From positions 512,001-576,000 of the forward strand of contig CAWKBC010000027.1 in assembly GCA_963847705.1 (NCBI GenBank): a DNA stretch of 64,000 nt, in the 5' to 3' direction. The notes under the pieces are model-generated. The model saw only the letters and a program-made list of their open reading frames with translations. It did no database searches and had not been told where the DNA came from. Every line of letters begins with the position of its first letter. The stretch's first letter is position 1. Position numbers and translations under genes: made by a program. Below are positions 33,004-54,159 of this stretch, piece by piece. Origin of the DNA: an uncultured Pseudomonadota bacterium (GTDB lineage: Bacteria; Myxococcota_A; Polyangia; Fen-1088).

Positions 33004-34332
33004 CTACGGCCCGCCGGAGACCGGCCAGCCGTTCGCGTCCCAGGCGATCTCCGAGATGCGCAGCGTGGCGGCGCCGCTCGAGCTCCCCTTGAGCGCGTGG
33101 TAGATGTTGTAGGTCTTGTTGTCGTAGGTGATGACCGCGTTGTGGCCGGGGGCGATCCAGTCGCTGTTCCCCTGGACGAGCAACGTCCCGCCCCCCTTCA
33201 TGAGGTCCGTGCCCGCCTCGTCGACATAGGGCCCGGTCACGGTCGTCGAGCGTCCCACGCGGATGTTGTAGTCGTAGGCGCCGCTGCAGCAGGCGCCCCA
33301 CGAGGAGAACAGGTAGTAGTACCCGCAGCGCTTGAACACCCAGCCCCCCTCGAGGCTCCCCTTGGAGTTCGCTCCGTTCGCCAGGGAGTAGAGCGTGGTG
33401 TCGGCGCGGAGGCCGTTCGAGGCGTCCAGCTTCACCATCTTGAGGCCGCTCCAGAAGCTGCCGAGCTCGAGCCAGGGCGTTCCGGCGTCGTCGATGACGA
33501 CGTTCGGGTCGATGGCGTTCCAGTTGTCGGTCTCGCCCATGTTCGAGCAGAGCACCATCCCCTGGTCGGCCCAGCTGCCGCTGTCGAGCGCCGCGCGCGT
33601 CGCCTGGCCGATGCACGACTTGTTGCTGCCGAAGGTCGAGGCCGCGTAATAGAGGTGATACACGCCGCCGAAGTAGGAGATGTCCGGCGCCCAGAGGTTG
33701 GTCGCACCGGTGGCCGTCGCGGCCCAGGCCGGCAGCGCCAGCGGCGTGGGGGCGTTGTTCCAGGTCGTCAGGTTGGTCGACGTCTTGGCGATGAGGCCGG
33801 TCGCGGCGAGGTAGATCGTGCTGCCCAGGACGTAGGCCGCCGGATCGTGGGCGCCCAGGCTCCCGGACAGCGTGAGCGCCTGTGGTGGATTGCTGGCGTC
33901 GTAGGTCGCGCCGGGGCAGGACATTGAACCACCACCGCCACCGGAGCCGGTCGTTCCGCCGGTGCCGGTCGCGCCCGACGAGCCACCTTGGCCCTTGCCG
34001 CCGGCGCCGCCAGTCCCCGTGCTGCCGCCCGTTGCCCGCGCGCCCGCAGCGCCGCCTGTTCCACGCGCGCCGGCTGCGCCGCCCGTTCCCGTCGCGCCGC
34101 CGGTCGCGCTCGCCCCGCCTGTTCCGTTGACGCCGCCGGTGCTCGAGACACCGCCGGTTCCGGTGATGCCGCCCGTGCCCGCGACGCCGCCGGCTCCAGT
34201 CTCGCCGCCGGTACTCGTGACGCCGCCAGTGCCCATCGCGCCGCCGGTTCCAGTCTCGCTGCCGGTCCCCGATTGCCCGCAGCCGAGGAGGGCGCCCATC
34301 CCCAGGAGCGCCATCGTCCGGCGAAGTCTCAT
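33004..34332 (-). CDS. GH43 endo-1,5-alpha-L-arabinanase-like lipoprotein
   Basis: Lipobox LLGC, Gly/Thr linker, AHDP, WAPD, NAIDP, GSFWSG, LEG, APGHN; ATGA overlap with the upstream gene. Confidence 0.88.
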   Translation of the reverse strand: MRLRRTMALLGMGALLGCGQSGTGSETGTGGAMGTGGVTSTGGETGAGGVAGTGGITGTGGVSSTGGVNGTGGASATGGATGTGGAAGARGTGGAAGARATGGSTGTGGAGGKGQGGSSGATGTGGTTGSGGGGGSMSCPGATYDASNPPQALTLSGSLGAHDPAAYVLGSTIYLAATGLIAKTSTNLTTWNNAPTPLALPAWAATATGATNLWAPDISYFGGVYHLYYAASTFGSNKSCIGQATRAALDSGSWADQGMVLCSNMGETDNWNAIDPNVVIDDAGTPWLELGSFWSGLKMVKLDASNGLRADTTLYSLANGANSKGSLEGGWVFKRCGYYYLFSSWGACCSGAYDYNIRVGRSTTVTGPYVDEAGTDLMKGGGTLLVQGNSDWIAPGHNAVITYDNKTYNIYHALKGSSSGAATLRISEIAWDANGWPVSGGP

Positions 34333-36284
34333 GATCCCGTCCTCACGAAGGTGAAGTCGTCGAGCGTGACCGACTGGTTGGCGGCGGCCGTGGCAGTGAC
34401 GCCGATCTGGCAGGTCCCGTTCGTCACCGCGATGCCGGTGATCGACACCTGGGTGAACCCGGTCATCGCCTTGGTCAGGGAGGCGTCCTTCTCGCTGCCG
34501 CCGTATCCCTTGGCATAGAGGTTCGCCGTCGTCTGGCCGCCCGTGCTCTTGGCCCAGACCGACAGCGTGTACGTCCCGTCGGGCAGGTTCGCCACCGCCT
34601 GGTTGAGCGTCGCCTGGTAGGCGGCGCTGTCGGTGAGCTGCCAGCTCCAGTTGCCGGTGTGGCCGCCGGAGACATTGGTATAGGGGGTGCCGCCGCTCGT
34701 GGTGGTGGTCGTCCACCCTGCCGGCTGGGTCATCGCCACCCGGTCGGCCTCGAAGCTCGGGTTGAGCGCGTAGTTGTTGTCGGGCCCGACGGTCCAGGTG
34801 CCGGCGGCGGCGTTGAGCGACCACTCGCTCATCGACGCCATGCTCGGCGTGGTCCCGCTGAAGGTGAGCGGGCACCACTGGTTGTAGCCGAGCCCGTTGC
34901 CGGCGAAATCGCTCCAGCGATCGCCGGCGAAGATGACCGTCGTCCCGGCCGTTCCCTTGACGGTGATGAAGAAGCCCGTCTGCGATACGTGGCTGAAGTC
35001 GTCGTCGGTGTTGCCGATGACGCCCTCGGCGCCGTAGGGGCCCATGATGTTGGTCGCCGCGATGTAGTAGCTGTGCGAGGCGTTCCAGCCGTGCAGATCC
35101 GACGAGCAGAAGTAATAGCTGCCGTTGTACTTGAACATCGTGTTCCCCTCGCGCCCCGCGCCGCCGAAGATGCGCGTGGCCGCGTCGATGCTCAGCGAAT
35201 CGGAGGCGTGCACCGGCGCCACGTAGAGGTTGCTGCGCCCGCTGCTCGACGAGCAGATGAGGTAGGACTTGCCGTCGTCGTCGGTGAAGATCGTCTGGTC
35301 GCCGGTGGTCATGTTGGCCACGTTGGTGACCACCGCCTGCACGTGATCGAAGGCGAACGTCCCGGTCGGCGTGTCGCTGGTGGCGAACAGCTCGCCGGTC
35401 CCCGCCGGACCACCCTGGTACTGCGAGATGAGCACGTATTTCTTGGTGGTGGCGTTGTAGACGACGCCCATGCGGCCGATCCAGGTCCCCGAGTCGACGT
35501 TCGCGCCGAGGCTGGCGGTGGTCAGGACGTCGTTCTCATGCTTCCAGGTGACCAGATCCGTCGACGAGTAGCAGGTGATCGCCGCGAAGCTGGTGTCGCT
35601 GTTCTTCTTCAAGCTGGTGACGTAGCTGACGGCGCCGTTGTATTTGACGCCGTACCAGTAGTACGTGCCGTTGAAGCTGAAGACGCCGCCCCCCTGCGAG
35701 TAGATCGGCGTGCCGGAGGTGTCCTTCCAGAAGGTGTCGTTGTGAATCAGCGCGCCAGCTCCAGGCGTGCCCCCGGTCGCGGAGGTCCCGCCAGTTCCAG
35801 GCGTGCCGCCGGTCGCGGAGGTCCCGCCAGCTCCGAGCGCCCCGCCGGTTCCGGAGGCGCCCGCGTGCCCTGCAGCGCCTCCGCTGCCGCCCGCGCCCGC
35901 GCGTCCTCCGCCAGAGCCGCCGCTCGCGCTTCCGTTGCCGCCGGTGGCGCCACCGCCTGTCCCGCCTCCGGTTCCGAGGGCACTGCCGCCTGTGCCACCG
36001 CCGGCGCTCGCGCCACCGGCTCCCGTCGCGCCGCCCGAGGCGGTCGCGCCACCGGTTCCCGTCGCGCCGCCCGAGGCGGTCGCGCCGCCGCTGCCGGGTG
36101 CGCCGCCGGTCGCGCCGGTCTCGCCGCCTTCACCGGTCTGCCCCCCCGAGCCCGCGGTCGAGCCCGAGCTCCCGCACCCGAGCGAGCAGAGCGCGACGCC
36201 GAGCGCCAGGAACGCAACCGATCGGGGCCGCGAAGCGAGGCGATGCCCATCGAACCGATGCCAGGGGTAGGGGCGGGTGTGCAT
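34329..36284 (-). CDS. GH43 (subfamily 24-like, exo-beta-1,3-galactanase-type) lipoprotein with C-terminal CBM-like domain
   Basis: Lipobox SLGC, linker, WKDTSG.PIYSQGGG, YYWYG, CYSSTDL, GREG, GWN, SQTGF, GDRW; NPSFEAD CBM start. Confidence 0.8.
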   Translation of the reverse strand: MHTRPYPWHRFDGHRLASRPRSVAFLALGVALCSLGCGSSGSTAGSGGQTGEGGETGATGGAPGSGGATASGGATGTGGATASGGATGAGGASAGGGTGGSALGTGGGTGGGATGGNGSASGGSGGGRAGAGGSGGAAGHAGASGTGGALGAGGTSATGGTPGTGGTSATGGTPGAGALIHNDTFWKDTSGTPIYSQGGGVFSFNGTYYWYGVKYNGAVSYVTSLKKNSDTSFAAITCYSSTDLVTWKHENDVLTTASLGANVDSGTWIGRMGVVYNATTKKYVLISQYQGGPAGTGELFATSDTPTGTFAFDHVQAVVTNVANMTTGDQTIFTDDDGKSYLICSSSSGRSNLYVAPVHASDSLSIDAATRIFGGAGREGNTMFKYNGSYYFCSSDLHGWNASHSYYIAATNIMGPYGAEGVIGNTDDDFSHVSQTGFFITVKGTAGTTVIFAGDRWSDFAGNGLGYNQWCPLTFSGTTPSMASMSEWSLNAAAGTWTVGPDNNYALNPSFEADRVAMTQPAGWTTTTTSGGTPYTNVSGGHTGNWSWQLTDSAAYQATLNQAVANLPDGTYTLSVWAKSTGGQTTANLYAKGYGGSEKDASLTKAMTGFTQVSITGIAVTNGTCQIGVTATAAANQSVTLDDFTFVRTGS

Positions 36285-36469
36285 GGATGGTCCCTTCAAT
36301 GAAGCAAAGGGTTCGGAGGGGCGAATCTGTGCCTCTCGGGCTCCGGATCGGATACTTATTTTGCGGACGTTGACGCCGAAAAAGGCCGCCTCGCAGGCGC
36401 TTTTGTCCGGCCGGGGTGATACTATTTTCGGACTATCTTTACGTGGACTGCTTTAAGCGGACAGAACGA

Positions 36470-37219: not shown

Positions 37220-38077
37220 ATGAAAAAGCCCTTTCTTCTGTCTGCTGGCACCGCCGCGCTGTCGTTCTGTCTCCTGGGCGGCCTGGCGCGCGCCGATCTC
37301 GACCTGCCGCGGCCGAGTCCGTCCGCCAAGGTGGTTCAGACGGTCGGGCTGACCGACATCACCGTCGACTACAGCAGCCCGGGGGTGAAGGGGCGAAAGA
37401 TCTGGGGCGCCGTGGTTCCCTACGACCAGCTGTGGCGCGCGGGCGCCAACAACCCGACCAAGATCACCTTCAGCCGTGACGTCAGCTTCGCCGACAAGCC
37501 GGTGCCGGCCGGGACGTACGCCTTCTTCGTCATCCCGACCAAGGGGGCCTGGACGGTCATCCTCAGCAAGAAGACCGATCAGGCGGGGACGGGGCGCGAC
37601 TACAAGCAGGCGGACGATCAGCTGCGCGTGCAGCTGACGCCGAAGGCGGCGCCCTTCCGCGAGCGGCTCGCCTACCTCGTCACAGACTTCACCGACGACA
37701 AGGCGTCGCTCGATCTCGAGTGGGAGAAGCTGCGCCTGGCGATCCCGATCGCGGTGCAGACCTCCGCCCAGGCGCTGGCCAACATCAACAGCACCATCGA
37801 CGGCACCTGGCGCACCTACGCGAACGCGGCGCGCTACCTGCTGGAAAACAAGAAGGACTACGACACCGCGATGAAGTACGTCGACCAGTCGCTGGCGCTG
37901 AAAGAGGACTGGTACAACGTCTGGATCAAGGCGGAGCTGCAGGCGGCGAAGGGGAACACCAAGGACGCGCGCGCCACCGGCCAGCACGCCTACGAGCTCG
38001 GCAAGAAGAGCGACGGGTTCTTCCTGGAGGGTGAGGTCAAGAAGACCCTCGAGGCGTGGAACAAGAAGAAGGCCTAA
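37220..38077 (+). CDS. DUF2911 domain protein with C-terminal TPR-like helices (exported)
   Basis: PRPSP..V.Q.VGLTDI.VDYS.P.VKGRKIWG.VPY..WRAGAN. Confidence 0.9.
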   Translation: MKKPFLLSAGTAALSFCLLGGLARADLDLPRPSPSAKVVQTVGLTDITVDYSSPGVKGRKIWGAVVPYDQLWRAGANNPTKITFSRDVSFADKPVPAGTYAFFVIPTKGAWTVILSKKTDQAGTGRDYKQADDQLRVQLTPKAAPFRERLAYLVTDFTDDKASLDLEWEKLRLAIPIAVQTSAQALANINSTIDGTWRTYANAARYLLENKKDYDTAMKYVDQSLALKEDWYNVWIKAELQAAKGNTKDARATGQHAYELGKKSDGFFLEGEVKKTLEAWNKKKA

Positions 38078-39282
38078 CCTTCGGGACGGTCGCTCAGCAC
38101 CCGGCGGTAAACCGCGACGTAGCGGTCGACCGCCGGCTCGATCCGGTAGCGGGTCTCCGCCAGGTGCCGGGCGGCCAGCGAGAGGCGCCGGTGAAGGTCG
38201 TCGTCGCCGAGCAGCCGGCCCGCGGCCGCGGCCATCGCCTCGACATCCCCGAGCGGACAGAGAAAACCGACCTCGCCCTCGGGGATCACCTCCGGGAGAC
38301 CGCCGACCGCCGAGGCGATCACCGGGACGCCGCAGGCCATCGCCTCGAGCGCGGCGAGGCCGAAGCTCTCGGTCTCGCTGGGGAGCAGGAAGAGATCGGC
38401 GTCGCGCAGGATGCCCGGAAGGTCGACGCGCTCGCCGAGAAACTCGACGTCGGCGGCGAGACCGAGCGCGGCGACCTGGGCGGCGATCCGGGGCCGCTCG
38501 GGACCATCGCCCACCAGGCGAAGGTGGGCCGGGCGGGCGGCGCGCAGGCGGGCGAACACCTCGACGACGTCCTGAACTCGTTTGACCGGACGGAAGTTGG
38601 AGACGTGAACGACGATCGGCCGCTCCGGCAACGGACGCGCCGCGGGGCCGGCCGGCGAAAACCGATCCGCGTCGACGAAGTTGGGAATGATGTCGATCGC
38701 CACCGTGTCGGGGACGCCCAGCGACTCGTGCGTGGCGCGGGCGAGCCAGGCGGACGGGGTGGTCACCGCGTCGCTGGCGGCGATCGAGAACCGGGTGAGC
38801 GGCAAGAAGCTCGGATCGCCCCCGACCAGGGTGATGTCGGTGCCGTGGAGCGTGGTCACCAGCTTGGGGGCGGCGGCCCGGCCGCCAGCGTCGGCGGCCA
38901 GCACCTCGCGCGCCAGGTGGGCGCTCACCGCGTGCGGGATCGCGTAGTGGGCGTGCACGACGTCGAGCCGTTCGCGGCGCGAGACCTCGACGATCTTCGA
39001 GGTGAGCGCCAGCGTGTAAGGCGAGTGTTTGAGCTGGGGGTAGGCAGGGGGCGCGACGCGGTGGAAGGTGACGTTCGCGCGCGCCGGGTCGAGGCGGCCA
39101 GGGACGTCGTCGCTGAAGACGTGAACGGCGTGCCCGCGCCGCGCCAGCGAGGTGGCGATCTCCGCCGCCACGACGCCGCTGCCGCCGAAGGTCGAGAAGC
39201 AGACGATGCCGACCCGGAGCGGCGCCCGCGTCTGGCCGGGCTCGCCCGGCCTGTTGCCTGCCTTGCCGGGCCCAACCGTCAT
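38074..39282 (-). CDS. bshA: N-acetyl-alpha-D-glucosaminyl L-malate synthase
   Basis: GI.C..TFGGSGVVA, HAHYAIPHA, TTLHGTDITLVG, HVSNFRPVKR, ESFGLAALEAMACGVP. Confidence 0.93.
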   Translation of the reverse strand: MTVGPGKAGNRPGEPGQTRAPLRVGIVCFSTFGGSGVVAAEIATSLARRGHAVHVFSDDVPGRLDPARANVTFHRVAPPAYPQLKHSPYTLALTSKIVEVSRRERLDVVHAHYAIPHAVSAHLAREVLAADAGGRAAAPKLVTTLHGTDITLVGGDPSFLPLTRFSIAASDAVTTPSAWLARATHESLGVPDTVAIDIIPNFVDADRFSPAGPAARPLPERPIVVHVSNFRPVKRVQDVVEVFARLRAARPAHLRLVGDGPERPRIAAQVAALGLAADVEFLGERVDLPGILRDADLFLLPSETESFGLAALEAMACGVPVIASAVGGLPEVIPEGEVGFLCPLGDVEAMAAAAGRLLGDDDLHRRLSLAARHLAETRYRIEPAVDRYVAVYRRVLSDRPEG

Positions 39283-40922
39283 GGCTCGAGGTCCTGCAGC
39301 GCCGTCGTGAACGGGCCGACGGCGGTGAGGCGCGCGAACACCAGCGCCTTCAAGGCCGCGGGGCCCAGCCGACCGGCGAGCGACGGCCAGGCGTAGGCCC
39401 GCTCCTGCGGGACGCCCCCGGGCGCGAGCGCGTTCTGCACGCGCGCGAGCCGGCCCAGGGCCACCCCCTCACGCTCGGCCAGCTTGCGCCCGTAGCGCCC
39501 GGTCAGCCGGGCGAGCGCCCGGGCGACCTGCGCCCGCGTGCGCTCCGCCGCGCGGGCGAGGTTTCGATCCTTGGGATTGAGGGCGGTCGCGGCGGCGGCG
39601 ATCTGCTCGACGGCGGGGGCGATCTCGGCGGCCACCCGCGCGGCCAGGTCGGCGGCGGATGGGAGCTCTGGCGATGCGGTGTGAGGCAGCCGCGCCAGGA
39701 GCTCGGCCTGGGGGCGCGCGACGTCGTCGGCGGCCAGACCGAGCTCCCTCAGCCGGCGCCGCGTGTGCGCGTCGAGACAGCGAAAGCGCCCGCGCGGGAC
39801 GATGAGCGGCATCGCCAGGCGGAAGTGTTCGTAAAGCGGTCCCGTCTGGGCGAAGTAGCTCACCTCCGCCAGGCCCCCGACGTAGGCCGCCGTCGGCAGC
39901 AGCGTGTCCTGGACGATCGGTCGCAGCAGCGCGGAGGTGGAGAAGCGGAGCGGTTCGTGCGCCAGCGCCTGGGCAACCTCCTGGTCGGAGAAGGCGCCGT
40001 CGGCTCCGGTCAGCCTCCAGGCCGACGTCCCGCTCCCCTCGGTGCGCTCCATCCGAAAGCGAGGGCCGTGCGCCGAACCGCGGTGACCGAACACCAGCGC
40101 GCAGCCGGGCCGCAGCGGGATCTGCCGTTCGAAGCCCGCCTCCGCCAGGGCCGCGCCTTGCTCGTCGAGGCGCTGGCCGAGCGTGGTGCAGGCGCCGAGC
40201 GCTTCGCGGTAGATCGGGGCGGCCAGGGCGGCGACGCGCGCCTCGCGGGGGTCGAAGATCAGCAACCCCTCATCGGCGAAGAGCTCGGCCAGGACGCCGG
40301 CGAACGCCTGCGCGATGGGGCGTCCGACGGTGTAGTGGGCGCGCAAGAGAGCCAGCGTCTCCTTCGCGGCTGGTCCGGCCCCCAGCAGCTCGGCGAGCGT
40401 GTCGAGGAGCGCGCCGACCTCCGCGGGGAGCCGGCGGTGCGCAACCGAGACGCGCGCCTCCGCGGGCGGCTCGCCCGGGAGCGACAGCTTGACCGGCGCG
40501 CCGCCGCCACCGGCGACCGTCGCCGAGGCGATCTCGGTGAAGTCGTGGTCCTCGGTCTGCAGCCAGAAGAGGGGCACGCAGCGGACGCCCGACTCCGCCT
40601 CCAGCGCCCGCGCCACCGCGATCGCGGATGCTGCCTTGTAGAATCCGTAGAGCGGCCCCAGGAAGAGACCGACCTGCTGGCCGGTCGCCACCACGGCCGT
40701 TCGCCCTGCACCCAGCGCCGCCAGATTGTGCGCGCGCGCACGGCTGGGCGGGAGGGCGGCCTGTTGATCGCGCAGCACCGGGAGGAGCTGGGGTGAGATC
40801 CGGCGCTCGGCCGCGGCGCGAGCGCGCGCCACCCGGTCGGCGCCCGATCGGAAGTCGAGCGCGATGAACCTGCGCGCGATCTCCTCGCCGGCAAGGTAAG
40901 AGCTGGAGAATGGCCGGGGCAC
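39279..40922 (-). CDS. bshC: Bacillithiol biosynthesis cysteine-adding enzyme
   Basis: TGQQ.GLF.GPLY..YKA, FW.QTEDHDF.EI, LLRPIVQD.LLPT.AYVGG.AE.SY.AQ, PQER; ATGA overlap with bshA. Start GTG 40922 or ATG 40931. Confidence 0.9.
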   Translation of the reverse strand: MPRPFSSSYLAGEEIARRFIALDFRSGADRVARARAAAERRISPQLLPVLRDQQAALPPSRARAHNLAALGAGRTAVVATGQQVGLFLGPLYGFYKAASAIAVARALEAESGVRCVPLFWLQTEDHDFTEIASATVAGGGGAPVKLSLPGEPPAEARVSVAHRRLPAEVGALLDTLAELLGAGPAAKETLALLRAHYTVGRPIAQAFAGVLAELFADEGLLIFDPREARVAALAAPIYREALGACTTLGQRLDEQGAALAEAGFERQIPLRPGCALVFGHRGSAHGPRFRMERTEGSGTSAWRLTGADGAFSDQEVAQALAHEPLRFSTSALLRPIVQDTLLPTAAYVGGLAEVSYFAQTGPLYEHFRLAMPLIVPRGRFRCLDAHTRRRLRELGLAADDVARPQAELLARLPHTASPELPSAADLAARVAAEIAPAVEQIAAAATALNPKDRNLARAAERTRAQVARALARLTGRYGRKLAEREGVALGRLARVQNALAPGGVPQERAYAWPSLAGRLGPAALKALVFARLTAVGPFTTALQDLEP

Positions 40923-40933
40923 CGAGAGCATCA

Positions 40934-40941
40934 ACTATACT
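40934..40941. promoter_or_regulatory. Overlapping divergent -10 hexamers between bshC and the LmbE operon
   Basis: actatact reads TATACT on + (40936-40941) and TATAGT on - (40939-40934). Confidence 0.5.
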
Positions 40942-40989
40942 CGGTCGCGTCGCTGCCGCCCGTCCCGCCTGCTTGCTTGCGATCCCTCC

Positions 40990-43566
40990 ATGCATCACCG
41001 CGCCCCCCGCCTTATTCTTTCGGTTCTCCTCTCGCTGCTCATGTTTCGCCACGCTGTCCTGGCGGCCGGTCCTCCGCCGCAACCGAACGCCGCGCAGATC
41101 GCCCTCGGCCTGCGCAAGCTCGGCGTCGCCGGCAGCGTCCTCTACGTGGCGGCGCACCCCGACGACGAGAACACCGCGCTGCTCGCCTATCTGGCCAACG
41201 GGGCGCTCTTGCGCACGGCTTACCTGTCGCTCACCCGGGGTGACGGCGGCCAGAACCTGATCGGCTCCGAGCAGGGGCCGGCGCTGGGCCTCATCCGCAC
41301 GCAGGAGCTGCTGGCGGCGCGCCGGATCGACGGCGCGGAGCAGTTCTTCACCCGCGCGCGCGACTTCGGCTTTTCCAAGAGCCCCCAGGAGACGCTGCGC
41401 ATCTGGGGCAAGGACGCCGTGCTGGCCGACGTGGTGGCGGTCATCCGGAAGTTTCGCCCCGACGTGATCGTCACCCGCTTCTCGCCCGAGCCGGCGGAGA
41501 CGCACGGGCACCACACGGCCTCGGCCATGCTGGCGCTGGAGGCGTTTCATGCGGCCGCCGATCCCAAGTTTCACCCCGAGCAGCTGGTGGGCGGCGTCGG
41601 CGTCTGGCAGGCGCGGCGGATCTTCTGGAACCGATCCTCCTTCTTCATCAAGCCGACCGACGACGTGAGCGGCGACGCCAAGCTGGACGTCGACGGCTAC
41701 AACCCCCTCCTGGGCGAGTCGTACGGCGAGATGGCCGCCGACGGCCGCAGCATGCACAAGAGCCAGGGGTTCGGCGTGGCGCGCACGCGCACGCCGATCG
41801 TCGAGTACTTCAAGCTGCTGGCGTCGTCGGACCCGAAGGAGATCGGGGCCGGGAAGCCGCTGGCGGGAATCCTGGCCGGCATCGACGTCACGCTCAAGCG
41901 CTTCGCCGGGGCGGCGCGGCTGCGGGGCCTGGTCGACAGGGCGATCGCGAAGTTCGACCCTGCCGCGCCGTACGCCTCGGTGCCGGCGCTGGCCGCCGTC
42001 GACGGCGCGCTGTCGGAGATCTCCGACGCCGGCTGGCGTGGGGAGAAACAGCGCGAGGTCGGCGAGCTGGTCGTCGCCTGCGCAGGGCTGTTCGTCGAGG
42101 CGACGGCGGCCGATTACCGCGCGGCGCCCGGGACGGCCGTCGAGATCACGGCCACCGCCGTCGACCGCTCACCGGTGGCGGTGACGCTCGACGAGGTCCG
42201 GTTCCCGTTCGAGGCCACCGGTCATGCCGTGGCGCACAAGCTGGAGACGCCGAAGCAGGACGGGCAGCGGATCTCCGGCGCCGCGGCCCCCTTCGAGCTC
42301 AAACAGAGCGTGAAGCTGCCTGCCGAGCTGGCCCCCACGACGCCGTACTGGCTCGAAGCGCCGCCCGACGCCGGCCTCTATCACGCCGCTCCGGCGTTCA
42401 TCGGCCTGCCCGAACGCGCGTCGCCCGTCGAGGTCACGTTCGGCTTCACGATCGGCGGTCGCCGTTTCACCGTCGCGCGTCCGGTCAGCTACAAGTGGAC
42501 CGATCCGGTGATGGGGGAGCGCTATCGGGCGCTGGAGGTGACGCCGGCGGTGTCGGTTCGCCCCGAGACGAGCGTCTTGATGTTCCCCCGCGGCGCGGTT
42601 CAGACGCTCACGGTGCGATTGGTGGCGGGCGTTGCCTCGGCATCAGGCCTGCTGCGTCCCGAGGCGCCGGCCGGCTGGACCGTCGAACCGGCCTCCGCGC
42701 CGTTCACGCTGGGCGCCGTGGGGAGTGAAGCGGTCGTGAGCTTTCAGGTGCGCGCCAATGCCGGTGCTGGAGCCTCGCCCGCCCCGTTGCAGGTCGTCGC
42801 CGAGCTCGCTGGCGCCCGTCTGTCGCGGGGCGTGGTTCGGATCGAGCACCCGCACATTCCGATCCAGACCTACCTCGTCGCCGCCGACGTCCAGCTGGTC
42901 CCGGTGGATCTCGCCATTGCCGGCAAGCGGATCGGTTACATCCCGGGACCGGGCGACGAGGTCCCAGCCAGCCTGCGCCAGGTGGGTTACGAGGTGACGA
43001 TCCTCGGCGATGAGGCGCTGGCCGCCGGCGCGCCGGCGCTCGGGCGCTTCGACGCGATCGTGGTCGGCGTCCGCGCCTTCAACACCAACGAGCGGCTGCG
43101 CGCCGCGCACGCCGTGCTCATGGCCTACGTCGAAAACGGCGGGACGCTGGTGGTGCAGTACAACACCAACAACCGACTGGCGGCGCTCACCGTCCCGCTC
43201 GGACCCTGGCCGTTCGACATCGGCCAGAAGCGCGTCACCGACGAGACGGCGGCGGTCACCTTGGCGGCGGCCCGTCACCCCGCGCTCACCACGCCGAACC
43301 TGATCGGCCCCAAGGATTTCGAGGGTTGGGTGCAGGAGCGTGGTCTCTATTTCGCCGACAAGTGGGACAGCCACTACGAGACGCCGCTCTCGATGCACGA
43401 TCCCGGCGAGCCGCCGCAATCAGGGAGCCTGCTCTGGGCGCGCTCCGGGAAGGGGACCTTCGTCTACACCGGCCTGGCCTTCTTCCGGCAGCTCCCGGCG
43501 GGCGTGCCGGGGGCCTATCGGCTGTTTGCCAACCTGCTGGCCGGCGGACATCCGCGGGCGCCCTGA
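40990..43566 (+). CDS. Exported PIG-L/LmbE family deacetylase/amidase with NEW3-like and GATase-like C-terminal domains
   Basis: Signal-like N-terminus, AAHPDDE, TRGDGGQN, RTQEL, HGHH, SMHKSQGFG, WVQERGLYF, FFRQLPAGVPGAYRLFANL. Confidence 0.9.
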   Translation: MHHRAPRLILSVLLSLLMFRHAVLAAGPPPQPNAAQIALGLRKLGVAGSVLYVAAHPDDENTALLAYLANGALLRTAYLSLTRGDGGQNLIGSEQGPALGLIRTQELLAARRIDGAEQFFTRARDFGFSKSPQETLRIWGKDAVLADVVAVIRKFRPDVIVTRFSPEPAETHGHHTASAMLALEAFHAAADPKFHPEQLVGGVGVWQARRIFWNRSSFFIKPTDDVSGDAKLDVDGYNPLLGESYGEMAADGRSMHKSQGFGVARTRTPIVEYFKLLASSDPKEIGAGKPLAGILAGIDVTLKRFAGAARLRGLVDRAIAKFDPAAPYASVPALAAVDGALSEISDAGWRGEKQREVGELVVACAGLFVEATAADYRAAPGTAVEITATAVDRSPVAVTLDEVRFPFEATGHAVAHKLETPKQDGQRISGAAAPFELKQSVKLPAELAPTTPYWLEAPPDAGLYHAAPAFIGLPERASPVEVTFGFTIGGRRFTVARPVSYKWTDPVMGERYRALEVTPAVSVRPETSVLMFPRGAVQTLTVRLVAGVASASGLLRPEAPAGWTVEPASAPFTLGAVGSEAVVSFQVRANAGAGASPAPLQVVAELAGARLSRGVVRIEHPHIPIQTYLVAADVQLVPVDLAIAGKRIGYIPGPGDEVPASLRQVGYEVTILGDEALAAGAPALGRFDAIVVGVRAFNTNERLRAAHAVLMAYVENGGTLVVQYNTNNRLAALTVPLGPWPFDIGQKRVTDETAAVTLAAARHPALTTPNLIGPKDFEGWVQERGLYFADKWDSHYETPLSMHDPGEPPQSGSLLWARSGKGTFVYTGLAFFRQLPAGVPGAYRLFANLLAGGHPRAP

Positions 43567-43567
43567 G

Positions 43568-43729
43568 ATGGCTCCCGAGCTGGAAGACGACGGCAAGGAG
43601 CCCGCGGCGCGCGCCGAGCTCGACGACGCGCCGCCGTTCCTCACCTGGCGCGCGATCTATCTCATCGTCCTCGGCGCGCTGGCTGTGGAGGTGTTGCTCG
43701 GCGCCGCGTTGACCCTGGCCGCCTCGTGA
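43568..43729 (+). CDS. Small single-TM protein preceding the symporter
   Basis: MAPELEDD...PPFLTWRAIYLIVLGALAVEVLLGAALT; GTGA overlap with the symporter start. Confidence 0.75.
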   Translation: MAPELEDDGKEPAARAELDDAPPFLTWRAIYLIVLGALAVEVLLGAALTLAAS

Positions 43730-45441
43730 GCACGCTCGACTGGGCCGTCCTGTTCGGGACGCTGGCCGCCATCGTCGCTTACGGCATCTGGAAGACGCGC
43801 GGCCCGTCGAGCATGACCGACTACGTGCACGGCGGTTACCGCGACCGCTGGCTGACGATCGGCCTCGGCGTGATGGCGACCCAGGCCTCGGCCATCACCT
43901 TCCTCTCGATGCCGGGGCAGGCCTACGAGGACGGCATGCGCTTCCTGCAGTTCTACTTCGGCCTGCCGATCGCGATGGTGATCCTCTCCGTCGCCTTCAT
44001 CCCGCGCTTCTACAAGCTGCGCGTGCTCACCGCGTACGAGTACCTCGAAGGGCGCTTCGATCTGAAGACGCGGCAGCTGGCGGCGCTCCTGTTCCTCCTC
44101 CAGCGCGGGCTCTCCGCCGGGATCACCATCTACGCGCCGGCCATCGTGCTCTCCAAGGTGCTGGGCTGGCCGCTGAACCTGACCTGCGTGGTGATCGGTG
44201 GCCTCGTCATCCTCTACACGGTGGCGGGTGGGACGCGCGCGGTCAGCCAGACGCAGCGGCAACAGATGGTGGTGATGCTGGGCGGGATGGTGGTGGCGTT
44301 CGTGGTGATCGTCCACAAGCTGCCGGCGGAGCTGTCCTTCCGACACGCGGTGTCGCTGGCCGGGACGCTGGGGAAGATGAACGTCGTCGACTTCTCTCCC
44401 GATCTCGGGAACCGCTACACCTTCTGGTCGGGCCTGGCCGGCGGGGGCTTTCTGGCGATGGCCTACTTCGGGACCGACCAGTCGCAGGTGCAGCGCTATC
44501 TGTCGGGAAGGTCTGTGACGGAGAGCCGGCTGGGGCTGCTGTTCAATGGCCTGCTCAAGGTCCCGATGCAGTTCCTGATCCTCTTCGTCGGGGTGATGGT
44601 CTTCGTCTTTTATCAATTCAACCAGCCGCCGCTCTTCTTCAACGAGTCGGAGCTGGCGCGCGTCGCCCAGACCTCGCGCGCGCCAGAAATGCAGGCGCTG
44701 GAGGCCGAGCACCGGCTGGCCTTCGCCAGGAAGCGCGTCGAGGTGGCGCGGCTGGCGGCGGCGCTCGACGGGGGGGACGCACCGGCGATCGCGGACGCCC
44801 GCGCGGGCCTGCGCGCGGCGGCCGCCGGCTCGGAGGCGATTCGTGAGAGGGCGCGGAGGCTCATCGCCGCCGCGGTGCCGCGCCCCGAGATCCACGACGG
44901 CGACTACGTCTTCCTGTCGTTCGTGATGGCCAATCTGCCGCGTGGCCTCATCGGGCTCCTCCTGGCCGTCATCCTGTGCGCCGCCATGTCGTCGACGGCC
45001 AGCGAGCTGACGGCCCTGGGCGGCTGCACCGTGGTCGACTTCTACCGGCGCAGCTTTCGCCCGGAGGCCACCGACGCGCACTACCTGCGGGTCGCCAAGA
45101 TCGCCACCGGCGTCTGGGGGCTCCTGGCGGTGGCCTTCGCCGGGTTCGCCTCGCTGGTCGACAACTTGATCCAGGCGGTCAACATCCTCGGCTCGCTCTT
45201 TTACGGCACCATCCTGGGGATCTTCCTGGCGGCCTTCTTCTTTCGCCGCTTGCGGGCGACGCCGGTCTTCGTCGCCGCGATCGTCTCCGAGTTGCTGGTC
45301 GTCGGGCTCTGGCTGGGGACGAAGATCGGATTCCTCTGGTTCAACGTGATCGGCTGCGGCGCCGTGTTGCTCTTGTCATTGCTGCTGAGCGGGTCAGACT
45401 TCGGCCGCCACTCAACCCGGACCAGGGAGCCCTCCCCATGA
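43726..45441 (+). CDS. Sodium:solute symporter (SSS family)
   Basis: ATQASAITFLS.PG, YEYLE.RF, YFGTDQSQVQRYL, AAMSS; many TM segments. Confidence 0.93.
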   Translation: MSTLDWAVLFGTLAAIVAYGIWKTRGPSSMTDYVHGGYRDRWLTIGLGVMATQASAITFLSMPGQAYEDGMRFLQFYFGLPIAMVILSVAFIPRFYKLRVLTAYEYLEGRFDLKTRQLAALLFLLQRGLSAGITIYAPAIVLSKVLGWPLNLTCVVIGGLVILYTVAGGTRAVSQTQRQQMVVMLGGMVVAFVVIVHKLPAELSFRHAVSLAGTLGKMNVVDFSPDLGNRYTFWSGLAGGGFLAMAYFGTDQSQVQRYLSGRSVTESRLGLLFNGLLKVPMQFLILFVGVMVFVFYQFNQPPLFFNESELARVAQTSRAPEMQALEAEHRLAFARKRVEVARLAAALDGGDAPAIADARAGLRAAAAGSEAIRERARRLIAAAVPRPEIHDGDYVFLSFVMANLPRGLIGLLLAVILCAAMSSTASELTALGGCTVVDFYRRSFRPEATDAHYLRVAKIATGVWGLLAVAFAGFASLVDNLIQAVNILGSLFYGTILGIFLAAFFFRRLRATPVFVAAIVSELLVVGLWLGTKIGFLWFNVIGCGAVLLLSLLLSGSDFGRHSTRTREPSP

Positions 45442-46064
45442 AGATGCGATCCTCTCTCCTGATTGCCGCCGTGGCCACCCTCGGCCTCGGGGCCTTCGTG
45501 GCGCGCGCGGAGGCCAAGAAGGCCGCCACGCCGGCCGGCGCCAGCAACGGATTCCAGACCGACTTTCTCGGCCTGCTCGACGACGTGCAGAAGAAGATCT
45601 TGTCGCTGGAGGACGCCATCCCGCAGGACAAGTTCAAGTGGCGGCCGGGCCCCGGCGTCCGCTCGGTCTCCGAAGCCTTCCTGCACATCGCCTACGGAAA
45701 CTACGGTTTCACCAAGGGCGCCACCGGCAAGGCGCCGCCGGCCGACGTCGGCTGGGGAGCGGACCACGCCAAGTGGGACGCCAAGACGACCGACAAGGCC
45801 GAGATCAAGAAGACGCTCGAGGCCTCCTTCGAGCAGGTGCGCGCGGCGATGAAGGACGTCACGGACGCCGACCTCGACAAGAAGGTCAACGTGTTCGGGC
45901 ACGACCTGACGGAGCGCGCGGTCTGGATGGCGCTCCTCGGCCACCTGAACGAGCACATGGGGCAGGAGGTCGCCTACGCCCGCGCCAACGGCGTCGTCCC
46001 GCCCTGGAGCATGCCGAAGGGCGCAAATGGCGCGAACGGCGCAAACGGGGCAAACGGTGGTTGA
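45438..46064 (+). CDS. Exported DinB/YfiT superfamily protein
   Basis: Signal peptide, WRP..GVRSVSE..LHIA and H..EH.GQ metal-binding His set; ATGA overlap with the symporter. Confidence 0.85.
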   Translation: MKMRSSLLIAAVATLGLGAFVARAEAKKAATPAGASNGFQTDFLGLLDDVQKKILSLEDAIPQDKFKWRPGPGVRSVSEAFLHIAYGNYGFTKGATGKAPPADVGWGADHAKWDAKTTDKAEIKKTLEASFEQVRAAMKDVTDADLDKKVNVFGHDLTERAVWMALLGHLNEHMGQEVAYARANGVVPPWSMPKGANGANGANGANGG

Positions 46065-46107: not shown

Positions 46108-46920
46108 CTAGCGCGCCGTCCAGCCGCCGTCGATGAGCAGCGTGGTGCCGGTGATCATGGCGGCCGCCGGCGAGCAGAGGAAGACGACGGAGGCGGCGAC
46201 GTCCGCCGGCTCACCGACGCGGCCGAGCGGGATGCGCGCCAGGAGATCACGGCGGAAGTCGTCGTCCTCGAGCCACTTCACCGTGCCAGGGGTGCGGATG
46301 AAGGTCGGCGCGACGGCGTTGACGTTGATGCCGTACGGCGCCCACTCGACCGCCAGGCACCTGGTGAGGTGGGCGATGGCCGCCTTGGTCATGCAGTAGA
46401 CCGACTCGGTCGGCAGCGCCACGAAGCCAGCCTGCGAGCTCAGGCTGACGATCCGGCCGCCGCGCCCGGCGGCGATCATCGCGCGCCCGACCGCCTGGCT
46501 GACGAAGAACGTTCCCTTGAGGTTGACGGCCACCGTCGCGTCGAAGTCGGCCTCGGTCACCGACTCCGCAGCGTTGGGCGGACCGATGCCGGCGTTGTTG
46601 ACCAGGATGTCGAGGTGGCCGAAGTGACCGACCGCCTGCGCGACCGCCGCCGAGACCTCCGCCGGCCGCGCGACGTCCATCTGCAACGGCAGCGCGTGGC
46701 GGCCGAGCGCGCGGACGACGTCGGCGACATCACCCGCCGCGCCGAGATCGCGAAAGCCCAGCGCCAGATCGGCGCCGGCCCGGGCCAGGGCGATGGCCAC
46801 CGCGCGGCCGATCCCGCGCGCGGCGCCGGTGACCAGCGCGATTCGTCCGGTGACGTCGAAGGGCCGTGCGGCGTCCGTGCCGGAAGGCGCGGTCGTCATC
46901 GAGGTTGGCGTTTCATTCAT
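46108..46920 (-). CDS. Short-chain dehydrogenase/reductase (gluconate 5-dehydrogenase/KduD-like)
   Basis: [21 protein letters not shown]. Confidence 0.9.
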
Positions 46921-46936
46921 TGGCGGAAGGTATCGC

Positions 46937-46961
46937 GTAACCACCTGCGACGGGCGACGTA
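46937..46961 (+). promoter_or_regulatory. Putative ECF sigma promoter of the bufferin cluster
   Basis: GTAACC-N15-CGTA about 60 nt upstream of the precursor gene. Confidence 0.45.
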
Positions 46962-47019
46962 GCACCGGTGAACGAGGACCGGGCCGCGGTGGCCCTTCGA
47001 CCTAACCCAGGAGAGAGAC

Positions 47020-47337: not shown

Positions 47338-48195
47338 ATGACGAACACCTCGACAGCGCAGCTGTTCCCCAACCTGGGTCGCGGCCTGGGGCTGCGGCGC
47401 GAGCACTACCAGCACGTCGTCGAAAATCGGCCGCCGGTCGGCTGGTTCGAGGTGATCTCGGAGAACTTCCTGGGCGCCGGCGGCAATCCGCGGCGCGTGC
47501 TGGAGGCGGTCCGCCGCGACCACCCGGTCGTCCTGCACGGCGTGTCGCTGTCGATCGGTTCGACCGACCCGCTCGACGAGCGCTATCTCACCGAGCTGGA
47601 CGCGCTGGCGCGGGCCGTCGAGCCGGCCTGGATCTCGGACCACCTCTGCTGGGGCGCGGCGCACGGGATCAACGCGCACGATCTGTTGCCGCTGCCGTAC
47701 ACCGAGGAGGCGCTGGCCCACGTCGCGCGCCGGGTGGAGATGGTCCAGGAGCGGCTGGGACGGAGAATCCTGCTGGAGAACCCTTCCAGCTACCTGGTGC
47801 TCGAGGGCGACATGCCGGAGCACGAGTTCTTGGCCGCGCTGGCCCGGCGCGCCGACTGCGGCATCCTGCTCGACGTCAACAACGTCTTCGTGAGCGCCCA
47901 CAACCACGGATGGGATCCGCAGGCCTACCTGGCGGCGATGCCGGCCGAGCGGGTCGGTCAGATTCACCTGGCCGGTCATTCCGAAGAGGGCGCGCTGCTC
48001 ATCGACACCCACGACGGACAGGTCGCCGACGGCGTCTGGCAGCTCTATGCCGAGGCGGTGAGGCGGTTCGGGGCCCGATCGACGATGATCGAATGGGACG
48101 CCGACGTCCCGGCGTTCGAGGAGCTGGAGGCGGAGCTCGGTCGGGCGGCGCGGTGGGAGAAGATGGCGCTGGGGGAGCGACGCGATGCGGCCTGA
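47338..48195 (+). CDS. bufB: DUF692 multinuclear non-heme iron oxidase (MNIO)
   Basis: GLGLR, FE.ISEN, HGVSLSIG, SDHLCW, DLLPLPY, LENPS, LLDVNN, HLAGH, IDTHD, EWD. Confidence 0.93.
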   Translation: MTNTSTAQLFPNLGRGLGLRREHYQHVVENRPPVGWFEVISENFLGAGGNPRRVLEAVRRDHPVVLHGVSLSIGSTDPLDERYLTELDALARAVEPAWISDHLCWGAAHGINAHDLLPLPYTEEALAHVARRVEMVQERLGRRILLENPSSYLVLEGDMPEHEFLAALARRADCGILLDVNNVFVSAHNHGWDPQAYLAAMPAERVGQIHLAGHSEEGALLIDTHDGQVADGVWQLYAEAVRRFGARSTMIEWDADVPAFEELEAELGRAARWEKMALGERRDAA

Positions 48196-49003
48196 GCGCG
48201 CGCCACGGCCCTCGCTGGCGGCCGTCCAGGCGGCGCTGCTGTCGCGGATCACCGGCCAGGAGCTGGGCGCGCCAGCGTGGGACACGACGTCGTTGATTCA
48301 GGGAGACGCGCGGGCGAGCGCCGAGGAGCGGCTGGCGATCTATTCGTTCATGTACGGCGCGCGCTTCGTCGAGGCGCTGGAGTCGCAGTTCCCGCGGCTG
48401 GCGCGCCAGATCGGCGCCGATGCGTTCGCCGACCTGACGGCCAACTACACGGCCGCTCGCCCGTCGCGCCACCCGTCGCTGCGTGAGCTGGGGCGCGCGC
48501 TGCCCGGCTGGCTGGCGGCGCAACAGCCCGACACACCGGCGCTGGCGGCCCTGGCGGCGCTCGAGTGGGCGCGCGCCGACGTCTACGATCTCGCCGACGA
48601 GCCCGCGATGACGCTGGAGGCGCTCCGCGCCTTTCCGCCTGAGCGCTTCGGCGAGCTGCCGCTCAAGTTGATCGCGGCGCACCGCTTCGTGGAGGTCGAG
48701 CGCGGGACCGAGGCGCTGTGGGACGGGCTGGCACCAGACGCGGGCGAAACGCCGGACCTGCTCCCGGCATCGCCGCAGGCCGGTCCGGGCGCGACGCTGC
48801 TCGTCTGGCGCCAGGAGATCGCCGTCTACCACCGCGCGGTCGATCCAGAGGAGCGCGCGGCGCTCGCCTTGATGTCATCCGGCAGCCGGTTCGGGGTCAT
48901 CTGCGACGCACTCTCCGCGGCGCATGGCGACGAGACCGCCGCGACGCGGGCGTTCGCCTGGCTCTCGACCTGGATCTCTGACGGCCTGCTGACCGAGCTC
49001 TGA
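48185..49003 (+). CDS. bufC: DUF2063/HvfC-type MNIO partner protein
   Basis: RLAIY...Y.AR..EAL...FP, LAALEWA..D, LLVWR; overlaps the MNIO stop. Confidence 0.85.
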   Translation: MRPERAPRPSLAAVQAALLSRITGQELGAPAWDTTSLIQGDARASAEERLAIYSFMYGARFVEALESQFPRLARQIGADAFADLTANYTAARPSRHPSLRELGRALPGWLAAQQPDTPALAALAALEWARADVYDLADEPAMTLEALRAFPPERFGELPLKLIAAHRFVEVERGTEALWDGLAPDAGETPDLLPASPQAGPGATLLVWRQEIAVYHRAVDPEERAALALMSSGSRFGVICDALSAAHGDETAATRAFAWLSTWISDGLLTEL

Positions 49004-52662: not shown

Positions 52663-54159
52663 CTAGAGCCGGCTGGCGTAGGCCGTCTTCATCAGGGGGT
52701 AGAGCGCCAGGTCGGGCAGGGCGGTGTAGCTGTTCCCCGACCGCTGCCAGAGCGCGTGGGTCGTGGTCGAGGAGTCGGACGGCTGCGCTTCGTTCCAGTC
52801 CCCTTGCGTGGTCGGCTCCCAGTCGAACGTTCCCAGCCCCTGGTTGTTGGGCAGCCCGAACACGACGTCATTGATCTGCCGCTCCATCGGGCCGTACTCG
52901 GCGGCGAAGAACCGGATGTTCGGATAGTTTGTGGCCAGCTGCGAGAACGTCGTCTGCCAGCCGTTCTGCGTGTTGGTCTGGCTGTTGATGTCCCCTTGGT
53001 ACTGCTGGTAGCAGGACTCGCCGAAGGTGTCCGGGGTGGCGCCCTGTTTGATCGCGCTGTCGAGCCAGCTCTTGCTGGTCGAGTAGGTGCTGCCGCGATC
53101 GATGTGGAACGAAATCAGGATCCCGGTGTCGACATCCTTGACGCCCTGGATGCCGGCCTTGAGCAGCATGCCCAGGTTCGGCCAGCCCGCGGTCGAGGCG
53201 GCGCCGGTGACCTTCGGTGTCATCCCGTCGATCGGCTGCCCGCCCGAGTCGCAGAGGTGGAGCAGCATGCCGGGCGTCGTCTCGTTGCCGATCTGGACCA
53301 TGTCCGGCCGCGCGCCGCCCGCGATGAGTGCGGTGATCGAGCTCTTCACGTAATCGTGCAGCGCCCCCGAGAGGTCGGCGATGTTGGTGTAACCCTGCCA
53401 GGCGACCGGCACGCACTGCTTGCCCGGGTCGGCCCAGTTGTCGCTCATGTGGAAGTCGATGAGCAAGCCCATCCCGGCGGCCTTGACCAGCGCGCCGAAC
53501 GCGACGGTGTGCGTGATGTCGTCGTAGCCGTTGGTCCTGTCGTATCCGTCGGCGGCCTTCGGGTCGACGAAGGTCCGCAGGCGGACGAAGTTGAAGCCGT
53601 TGGCCTTCATCGAGGTGAGCAGGTTGTTGATGGCTGTCGTTCCGGCCGGCTCCTGATCGGTGACGTCGGCGCCCAGGAAGTAACTCGGCAGAGTGCTCGT
53701 TCCCGCGCCGCCGGTTCCGGTCGCGCCGCCGGTCGCCTTGGCACCGGCCGCGCCCCCGGTTCCGGTGGTTCCGCCGCTGGCCTTGGCGCCCGCGGCGCCG
53801 CCGGTTCCGGTGGTTCCGCCGGTGGCTGCGGCGCCGCCGCTGCCTTTTGCGCCGGCCGCGCCCCCGCCGGTTCCCGTGACGCCGCCGGTGGCTGTGGCGC
53901 CGCCGGTGCCTTTTGCGCCGGCCGCGCCCCCGCCGGTCCCCGTGACGCCGGTGCCCCCGGTCCCGCTGCCGCCGGCGCCCGAACCACCTGTTCCGCTCGC
54001 GCTACCTCCCGAGCCGCTGCCACCGCTGCCGGTACCGCCGCTGGCCGTCGCTCCACCGGTGTCGGAAGCACCGCCCTCACCCGTGTCGCCGGTCCCCTGG
54101 CCGTTGGTGCAGCCCCAGAAGGTCGCCGCGAGGAGAAGGACACAGGTGGATTTGTGCAT
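52663..54159 (-). CDS. GH53 endo-1,4-beta-galactanase lipoprotein with Gly/Thr linker
   Basis: Lipobox FWGC, GADV, RLRTFVDP, DFHMSDNWADPGKQ, MVQIGNE, AEYG, WEP. Confidence 0.9.
   Translation of the reverse strand: MHKSTCVLLLAATFWGCTNGQGTGDTGEGGASDTGGATASGGTGSGGSGSGGSASGTGGSGAGGSGTGGTGVTGTGGGAAGAKGTGGATATGGVTGTGGGAAGAKGSGGAAATGGTTGTGGAAGAKASGGTTGTGGAAGAKATGGATGTGGAGTSTLPSYFLGADVTDQEPAGTTAINNLLTSMKANGFNFVRLRTFVDPKAADGYDRTNGYDDITHTVAFGALVKAAGMGLLIDFHMSDNWADPGKQCVPVAWQGYTNIADLSGALHDYVKSSITALIAGGARPDMVQIGNETTPGMLLHLCDSGGQPIDGMTPKVTGAASTAGWPNLGMLLKAGIQGVKDVDTGILISFHIDRGSTYSTSKSWLDSAIKQGATPDTFGESCYQQYQGDINSQTNTQNGWQTTFSQLATNYPNIRFFAAEYGPMERQINDVVFGLPNNQGLGTFDWEPTTQGDWNEAQPSDSSTTTHALWQRSGNSYTALPDLALYPLMKTAYASRL

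Follow-up and report, generated by a model that had tools for sequence, protein, structure and literature searches.

The closest described relatives of the system reported here are BshB1 and BshB2/Bca of Bacillus and Staphylococcus aureus, and MshB and Mca of mycobacteria, all of which are genetically linked to thiol synthesis. These enzymes share an HXDD+H metal site, a set of Arg, Asp and His residues for N-acylglucosamine and an MshB-like fold (PMC4101496, PMC5790435), and a dual role as deacetylase and amidase has a precedent in S. aureus (PMC5790435). Whether bacillithiol (BSH) or its disulfide (BSSB) is imported or exported is unsettled (PMC5790435). BSH derivatives have been argued to be the most widespread bacterial thiols, and Verrucomicrobia are listed in the same source without any predicted thiol (PMC6282198). 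Here, we have analysed a 64,000-nucleotide stretch of DNA (the window; GCA_963847705.1, contig CAWKBC010000027.1, positions 512,001 to 576,000) in which the bacillithiol genes bshA and bshC stand head-to-head with genes for a long PIG-L/LmbE hydrolase and a sodium:solute symporter (SSS). The link between this module and the bacillithiol genes is well supported, since the two co-occur in three phylum samples and cluster in several gene orders. We argue that the module probably cleaves the glucosamine amide outside the cytoplasm and would import the product for BshC.

A hydrolase-symporter module linked to bacillithiol genes

By the names of its homologues, the host belongs to the Polyangia (Myxococcota). 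The minus-strand arm of the locus comprises bshA for GlcNAc-malate synthase (38074..39282; TIGR03999, 457.7 bits against a cut-off of 273.7) and bshC for the cysteine-adding enzyme (39279..40922; TIGR03998, 373.1 against 265.8). Diverging from it on the plus strand are the genes for the 858-aa PIG-L/LmbE zinc hydrolase (40990..43566; PF02585), which is likely exported, a 53-aa peptide with one hydrophobic transmembrane segment and a PP..W..IY motif (43568..43729), the 571-aa SSS symporter (43726..45441; PF00474 and TIGR00813 above cut-off) and a 208-aa DinB/STL-superfamily protein with a signal-like N-terminus (45438..46064; PF12867, E 3e-14). This arm is tightly coupled: the hydrolase and peptide genes are 1 nt apart, those of the peptide and SSS overlap by GTGA, and those of SSS and DinB by the 4 nt ATGA. 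An open reading frame at 44976-46064 was rejected as the DinB gene: over its first 154 codons it runs through SSS, and the true start is ATG 45438. Convergent with bshA, and overlapping its stop, is a plus-strand gene for a 285-aa DUF2911 protein with a signal-like N-terminus (37220..38077; PF11138, E 5e-50). The gene places, the divergent arrangement and the adjoining DUF2911 gene are all as described in an earlier reading of the window from its letters alone (the original prediction).

The start of bshC is probably GTG 40922, whose register is kept in relatives, with ATG 40931 as the alternative; the gap to the hydrolase gene is 67 nt from the former and 58 nt from the latter, within the 70 nt first proposed. 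Two -10-like hexamers overlap in it (40934..40941), TATACT on the plus strand at 40936-40941 and TATAGT on the minus strand at 40934-40939. TATACT is kept in 9 of 20 divergent loci inspected, with 6 showing the ACTATA form. The overlapping hexamers noted earlier are thus present, but a sigma-70 scan scored no full -35/-10 pair. The region is likely to be a bidirectional promoter.

That the arrangement extends beyond this genome came from profiling of four phyla. In the sample from the host's own phylum (151 genomes), all 15 genomes with BshC above cut-off also have the full-length enzyme, 135 have neither, and a single one carries a 34% homologue with no SSS, BshC or BshA; 11 of the 15 module loci are head-to-head with bsh genes. 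Among 161 Acidobacteriota genomes, 84 have both the enzyme and BshC (83 without the unpublished G582, and with some of the BshC matches weak), 6 the enzyme only, 21 BshC only and 50 neither. Two of the six enzyme-only genomes carry mini-bshC-bshA-lmbE-SSS-DinB-DUF2911 in one run, and the other four have distant homologues and no bshA; two further genomes of this phylum have DUF2911-bshC-bshB1-bshA-lmbE-SSS as a single run. The enzyme is found in 7 of 151 Verrucomicrobiota genomes, all with a DUF2911-lmbE-SSS-mini-bshC-(bshB)-bshA run. A Bacteroidota sample of unknown make-up (201 genomes) has the full-length enzyme in 57 and BshC in 193. The module is also present in cultured Myxococcus and Bacteroidota. 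The original prediction would have failed had the module been common without bshA and bshC and its linkage unique to this genome; neither is the case, and the same clustering is seen in many relatives. Separately, one genome of the Verrucomicrobiota sample (G480, L127) has a canonical bshC-bshB1-bshA set and no module match. Among the 2,194 rows listed in a supplement of transposon-sequencing (RB-TnSeq) data, there is one PIG-L row (RS05285), with no symporter neighbour, and there are no bsh rows (PMC13440311).

The Verrucomicrobiota at first seemed to have the module without BshC, as PF10079 has no match in the 7 module-bearing genomes. In all 7 runs this would be resolved by the putative mini-BshC, a 255-aa family annotated as hypothetical and with 6,889 matches. 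In its loci (L128-L134, L083, L148 and L149; e.g. L134:6419-7186) it always has bshB/bshA on one side and SSS or other genes on the other. The proteins fall below the cut-offs of PF10079 and TIGR03998 (E 6e-4 in one of four), their similarity to BshC is weak (hhalign E 7e-4, probability 26%; Atlas 0.91 to a BshC cluster), and a sequence search of the PDB gave no match. A profile built mostly from the 7 positives found no mini-BshC in the other 144 Verrucomicrobiota genomes. From this family, one would predict that some Verrucomicrobiota and Acidobacteriota make a BSH-type thiol; if true, this would be the first low-molecular-weight thiol predicted for the Verrucomicrobiota. In Acidobacteriota G594, G608, G620, G644, G677, G697 and G715, PF10079 gives weak matches to frames of about 400-420 aa, which are possibly a BshC class of intermediate size.

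Among the module loci of the four phyla, the conserved core is the long PIG-L enzyme, the small membrane peptide, the SSS symporter and DUF2911, and DinB is an accessory. In 101 of the 118 loci long enough to show it, SSS lies no more than 3.2 kb downstream of the hydrolase, and a strict pattern finds the peptide in 61 of the 101 PIG-L/SSS intervals, counts that include at least one spurious peptide match and a few loci from the same contig twice. DUF2911 is present, at varying positions, in 72 of 127 loci with the long PIG-L enzyme. Within the host's genus, 11 of the 18 other genomes have DinB after SSS. The same order is seen in 3 of 20 Acidobacteriota loci, where one DinB is a remnant, and DinB is absent at that position from the remaining Myxococcota, Verrucomicrobiota and Bacteroidota loci. 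The original prediction counted DinB as part of the system; we rejected it as a core part and count DUF2911 in the core.

The long hydrolase and its partners

The hydrolase consists of a PIG-L domain, a helical region, two beta-sandwiches, the second NEW3-like, and a C-terminal GATase1/ThuA-like domain. In 140 aligned long PIG-L sequences, H56, D58, D59, R103, D125, H172 and H175 are invariant. They align to H13, D15, D16, R68, D95, H144 and H147 of MshB, which are its metal, base and substrate residues (PMC4101496). By this alignment, the LmbE metal- and sugar-binding site is shown to be intact in the long hydrolase. The AlphaFold2 (AF2) model (pLDDT 95) has its best fold match in MshB (Z 21.2, rmsd 4.0, 244 aligned), and its C-terminal domain matches the GATase1-like 3rht (Z 15.2, rmsd 3.2, 196 aligned). 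The protein therefore has the HXDD+H metal site, the equivalents of Arg68, Asp95 and His144, and the MshB-like fold that mark the PIG-L/LmbE superfamily. Judged by its length of 858 aa, its signal-like N-terminus and its scores far below the curated cut-offs (BshB1 29 against 183, Mca 43 against 277 and MshB 36 against 224 bits), it is outside the BshB1, Mca and MshB orthologue groups. Unlike BshB, Bca, MshB and Mca, it has three extra domains, a signal-like N-terminus, HGHH in place of HPDH, and coupling to an importer; its working would resemble the recycling by Bca and Mca, yet it belongs to neither the BshB nor the Bca orthologues.

A hydrophobicity heuristic gives signal-like N-termini in 115/118 PIG-L proteins, 48/60 DUF2911 proteins and 117/120 DinB homologues, and in none of the controls (BshA 0/26, short BshB1 0/18, BshC 0/30). 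A similar test is passed by 127 of 136 database homologues of the hydrolase. Tat or lipoprotein export was rejected, with 0 Tat motifs and 1 lipobox among the 136. The signal-like N-termini first noted for LmbE and DinB of the window are thus a family-wide trait.

The transporter scores 214.6 bits against a TIGR00813 cut-off of 184 and has at least 10 hydrophobic segments. Its closest solved structure is 5NV9 (E 6e-44), which we take to be the sialic-acid transporter SiaT, followed by NIS, SMCT1 and SMVT (E 1e-38 to 1e-36) and by vSGLT (E 1e-23). The nearness to the anion carriers 5NV9, NIS, SMCT1 and SMVT would suit an anionic substrate, though it is no proof of one. Unlike these symporters, to which it is only ~30% similar, the module transporter carries ~80 residues inserted around 302-397 when compared with 5NV9, and it has an upstream peptide partner. 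The 53-aa peptide is likely an accessory subunit of the symporter. A complex prediction for the hydrolase and the insertion (residues 296-402) scored 0.03 and was not used as evidence.

The AF2 model of DUF2911 (pLDDT 92) contains a beta-sandwich (residues about 33-179) and TPR helices. Fold searches matched solved folds in the TPR part only and barely probed the beta-sandwich. The protein may be a ligand-binding or scaffold accessory.

A His triad is a hallmark of the Bst bacillithiol S-transferases, and the DinB protein has such a triad in its DinB/STL domain (PF12867), formed by His83 and His169-x3-His173. With strict patterns, the first-His motif is found in 110 of 120 homologues and the HxxEH motif in 85; matches to Bacillus DinB-like structures are weak (E 0.025-0.16). 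The module DinB resembles BstA-H in fold family and His pattern, but it has a signal-like N-terminus and is non-core, and the superfamily is functionally diverse (PMC5815605). At 46000-46064 of the window, the protein ends with a GANGANGANGANGG repeat that is not in the L040 orthologue.

A predicted periplasmic route and the missing BshB

How the module may work is suggested by its gene content. We argue that BSH, its disulfide, its S-conjugates or N-acetylglucosaminyl-malate (GlcNAc-Mal) could reach the periplasm because the cell itself exports them or because neighbours or prey have lysed. The exported zinc hydrolase would cut the glucosamine amide and free Cys, Cys-S-R or acetate; SSS and its small partner would then bring glucosaminyl-malate (GlcN-Mal) into the cytoplasm, where BshC could re-add cysteine. 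With bshB1 lost, as in this genome, deacetylation would fall to this route too, much as one dual BshB/Bca enzyme does both jobs in S. aureus. In loci that carry it, the exported DinB would contribute an earlier step, S-conjugation in the periplasm, and DUF2911 could act as a binding or scaffold accessory. An exported amidase/deacetylase with a GlcN-Mal importer feeding BshC is the best reading of the module, and we hold it to be rather probable. Amide cleavage and re-import of GlcN-malate are thereby retained from the original prediction, and its S-transfer by DinB is moved out of the core. The route would resemble glutathione salvage in Escherichia coli, in which the thiol is outside the cytoplasm, a dedicated amide hydrolase acts on it and the parts are recovered. 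There, gamma-glutamyl transpeptidase is periplasmic and the released parts are taken up again. Glutathione is exported to the E. coli periplasm (cited in PMC5790435), and gamma-glutamyl transpeptidase is an amide hydrolase (PMC6336425).

The question of BSH import and export would thus gain candidates for the hydrolase, the transporter and the substrate; the module would also give DUF2911 a role and explain the many Polyangia with bshA and bshC but without bshB. In the open-access literature we found no description of it; subscription papers lay outside the search.

A number of points weigh against this reading. The activity of the hydrolase, its export and its role in the module are predictions from genes, and the export calls come from the heuristic and not from SignalP. 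The position of MshB D146 and BshB D112 is a His in the long hydrolase, and Arg109, which contacts malate in BshB, has no conserved equivalent, so that malate recognition is only putative. In the module loci we found no exporter of BSH or GlcNAc-Mal. The module is dispensable for BSH producers, as 136 of 193 BshC-positive Bacteroidota genomes and 21 Acidobacteriota genomes with BshC do without it. The Bacteroidota sample does not discriminate (0 of 8 BshC-less genomes with the enzyme, p 0.11), and the module does not adjoin bsh genes there, a single locus having bshB1 9 kb off. Five genomes have distant hydrolase homologues (32-36% identity) and no bshA. Moreover, since the genomes within samples are kin and not independent, Fisher values overstate the association, and the repeated, differing gene orders weigh more than p-values.

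The distribution of BshB bears on a first alternative, a biosynthetic detour in which the long enzyme serves mainly as BshB: GlcNAc-Mal would exit, be deacetylated outside and return via SSS, with cleavage of conjugates or BSH a minor activity. The absence of a classical short bshB, first noted for the window, holds for the whole assembly (84.7% complete), where we found no BshB1 or BshB2 and the long protein is the sole PIG-L match; BshB1 is above cut-off in 0 of 21 genus relatives. Among 47 genomes, 46 of them with BshC, BshB1 passes in 11, each time inside the module cluster, and is missing from 35 of the 46 that keep bshC. In a FastTree tree of 85 of the 128 rows, for which Bacteroidota were thinned, the BshB1-less genomes are spread over several branches; its outgroup is not monophyletic, so we claim no direction. 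Of 37 family genomes with BshC, 16 have no PIG-L match other than the long enzyme, and 6 of these 16 are at least 90% complete. The long enzyme is also the only one in G068 and G163, with further PIG-L genes in the three other genomes compared with them. The detour would be favoured by these losses, by the eight genomes at least 90% complete in which the enzyme is the sole PIG-L protein, and by the retention of bshA in 5 of 5 genomes tested (split over contigs in one). However, BshB1 lies inside the same cluster in the 11 genomes and a bshB-like gene is found in 6 of the 7 Verrucomicrobiota operons, so the module is retained where BshB exists, and a non-PIG-L deacetylase could also account for the missing step. 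We regard the detour as unlikely. The long enzyme is therefore more than a stand-in for BshB; its presence seems rather to make BshB dispensable. The proposal that LmbE replaces BshB and the salvage reading are compatible, as BshB1 accompanies the enzyme in the cluster of 11 genomes and is missing beside it in 35.

Lyase loci beside distant homologues and further alternatives

Four Acidobacteriota loci of a sister clade (L152, L154, L155 and L156) show the order TonB receptor-SSS-PIG-L-ArgH-like lyase, with a ROK regulator in three and bshC ~6 kb away. A canonical argH is present elsewhere in each of these genomes, which rules out that the linked lyase is the housekeeping gene. Plasmid homologues of the hydrolase (~30%) were found in 22 records, and all six loci examined (L189-L194) have a ROK regulator, an ABC transporter, an 'argH' and a kinase gene beside PIG-L. 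In the Bacillus plasmid, the kinase is annotated as hypothetical, and we presume it to be one from its motif. The other five loci come from Alphaproteobacteria, which probably inherited them as one cluster. In a comparison of four plasmid lyases, scores were 310-390 bits against the Acidobacteriota lyases and 149-207 against the argH of the window genome. A metagenome scan with the lyase gave one weak locus.

The lyases keep the SSxMPxKxN motif, and their best structure matches are 6G3D and 6RX8, both deposited as 'argininosuccinate lyase'; the former we take to be EDDS lyase. As in EDDS lyase and other ArgH-like lyases, a family that eliminates fumarate from succinyl compounds, such a reaction would be expected here; unlike them, the linked lyase is found only beside distant homologues, outside the window, and would cleave the C-O bond of a malate glycoside. 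Carboxymethyloxysuccinate lyase is reportedly a precedent for a C-O lyase, which we did not find when we searched for it. The 'argH' genes of these loci are probably not for arginine synthesis. A lyase, a ROK regulator, a sugar kinase and an N-acylglucosamine hydrolase would together meet the needs of N-acyl-glucosaminyl-malate breakdown; the lyase substrate could instead be an N-succinyl compound or sugar, a further point on the adverse side.

More broadly, it is conceivable, and we propose it tentatively, that BSH is trafficked and shared. Producers in Myxococcota, Bacteroidota, Acidobacteriota and Verrucomicrobiota would run a periplasmic cycle of export, exported amidase and GlcN-malate symporter, in some lineages as the sole deacetylation route, and non-producers such as Aminobacter, Rhizobium and roseobacters would eat BSH or GlcNAc-malate via the ABC importer, a fumarate-releasing C-O lyase and the kinase. 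If true, these would be the first transporter of the BSH core and the first BSH catabolic pathway, and the lyase loci would indicate that cultured Alphaproteobacteria have a breakdown route not yet described.

The plasmid loci are also where a second alternative finds some of its evidence, namely that the symporter imports intact BSH, or that exported BSH has a periplasmic redox role, and that the hydrolase acts only on BSH that is damaged or conjugated, or releases cysteine for nutrition. The alphaproteobacterial PIG-L proteins have no signal peptide in three checked and adjoin an ABC importer, which suggests that the substrate is first imported intact there. Three of the six plasmid loci have a DMT/EamA gene after that of the hydrolase, and one (L193) has a cysteine dioxygenase-family gene; L190 has a creatininase-family gene. 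In five Myxococcota genomes (G000, G031, G032, G068 and G209), YpdA is above cut-off in 0/5 while gshB passes in 3/5, hinting that BSH may not be the main cytoplasmic buffer of these bacteria. Against this, an exported amidase beside the importer would destroy BSH before uptake, and the bshC kept beside the module fits import of a BshC substrate better; we consider the uptake of intact BSH doubtful. With gshB present or partial, the five Myxococcota genomes may hold both glutathione and BSH without a known BSSB reductase.

That the module serves an unrelated N-acetyl amino-sugar of the cell wall or a glycan, and owes its place near bsh genes to common history or co-regulation, would be in keeping with the unlinked module of Bacteroidota, a nagB gene after the enzyme in one locus and the many GlcNAc compounds on which PIG-L enzymes act (PMC4101496), but it is made highly improbable by the repeated joining with bsh genes in differing orders in three phyla, the tight match of presence and absence, and the fumarate-lyase-family partner in non-producers.

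Other genes of the window lie around the locus. Convergent with DinB is an SDR dehydrogenase (46108-46965, minus strand), whose reading frame is near GolD/DthD (256 against 286 bits). At 47338-49003 on the plus strand, an MbnB/TglH/ChrH (DUF692) enzyme is followed by a DUF2063 protein, likely a pair for modifying a ribosomally synthesised and post-translationally modified peptide (RiPP). Glycoside hydrolase genes, two of family GH43 and one of GH53, are found on the minus strand at 33004-36299 and 52663-54159.

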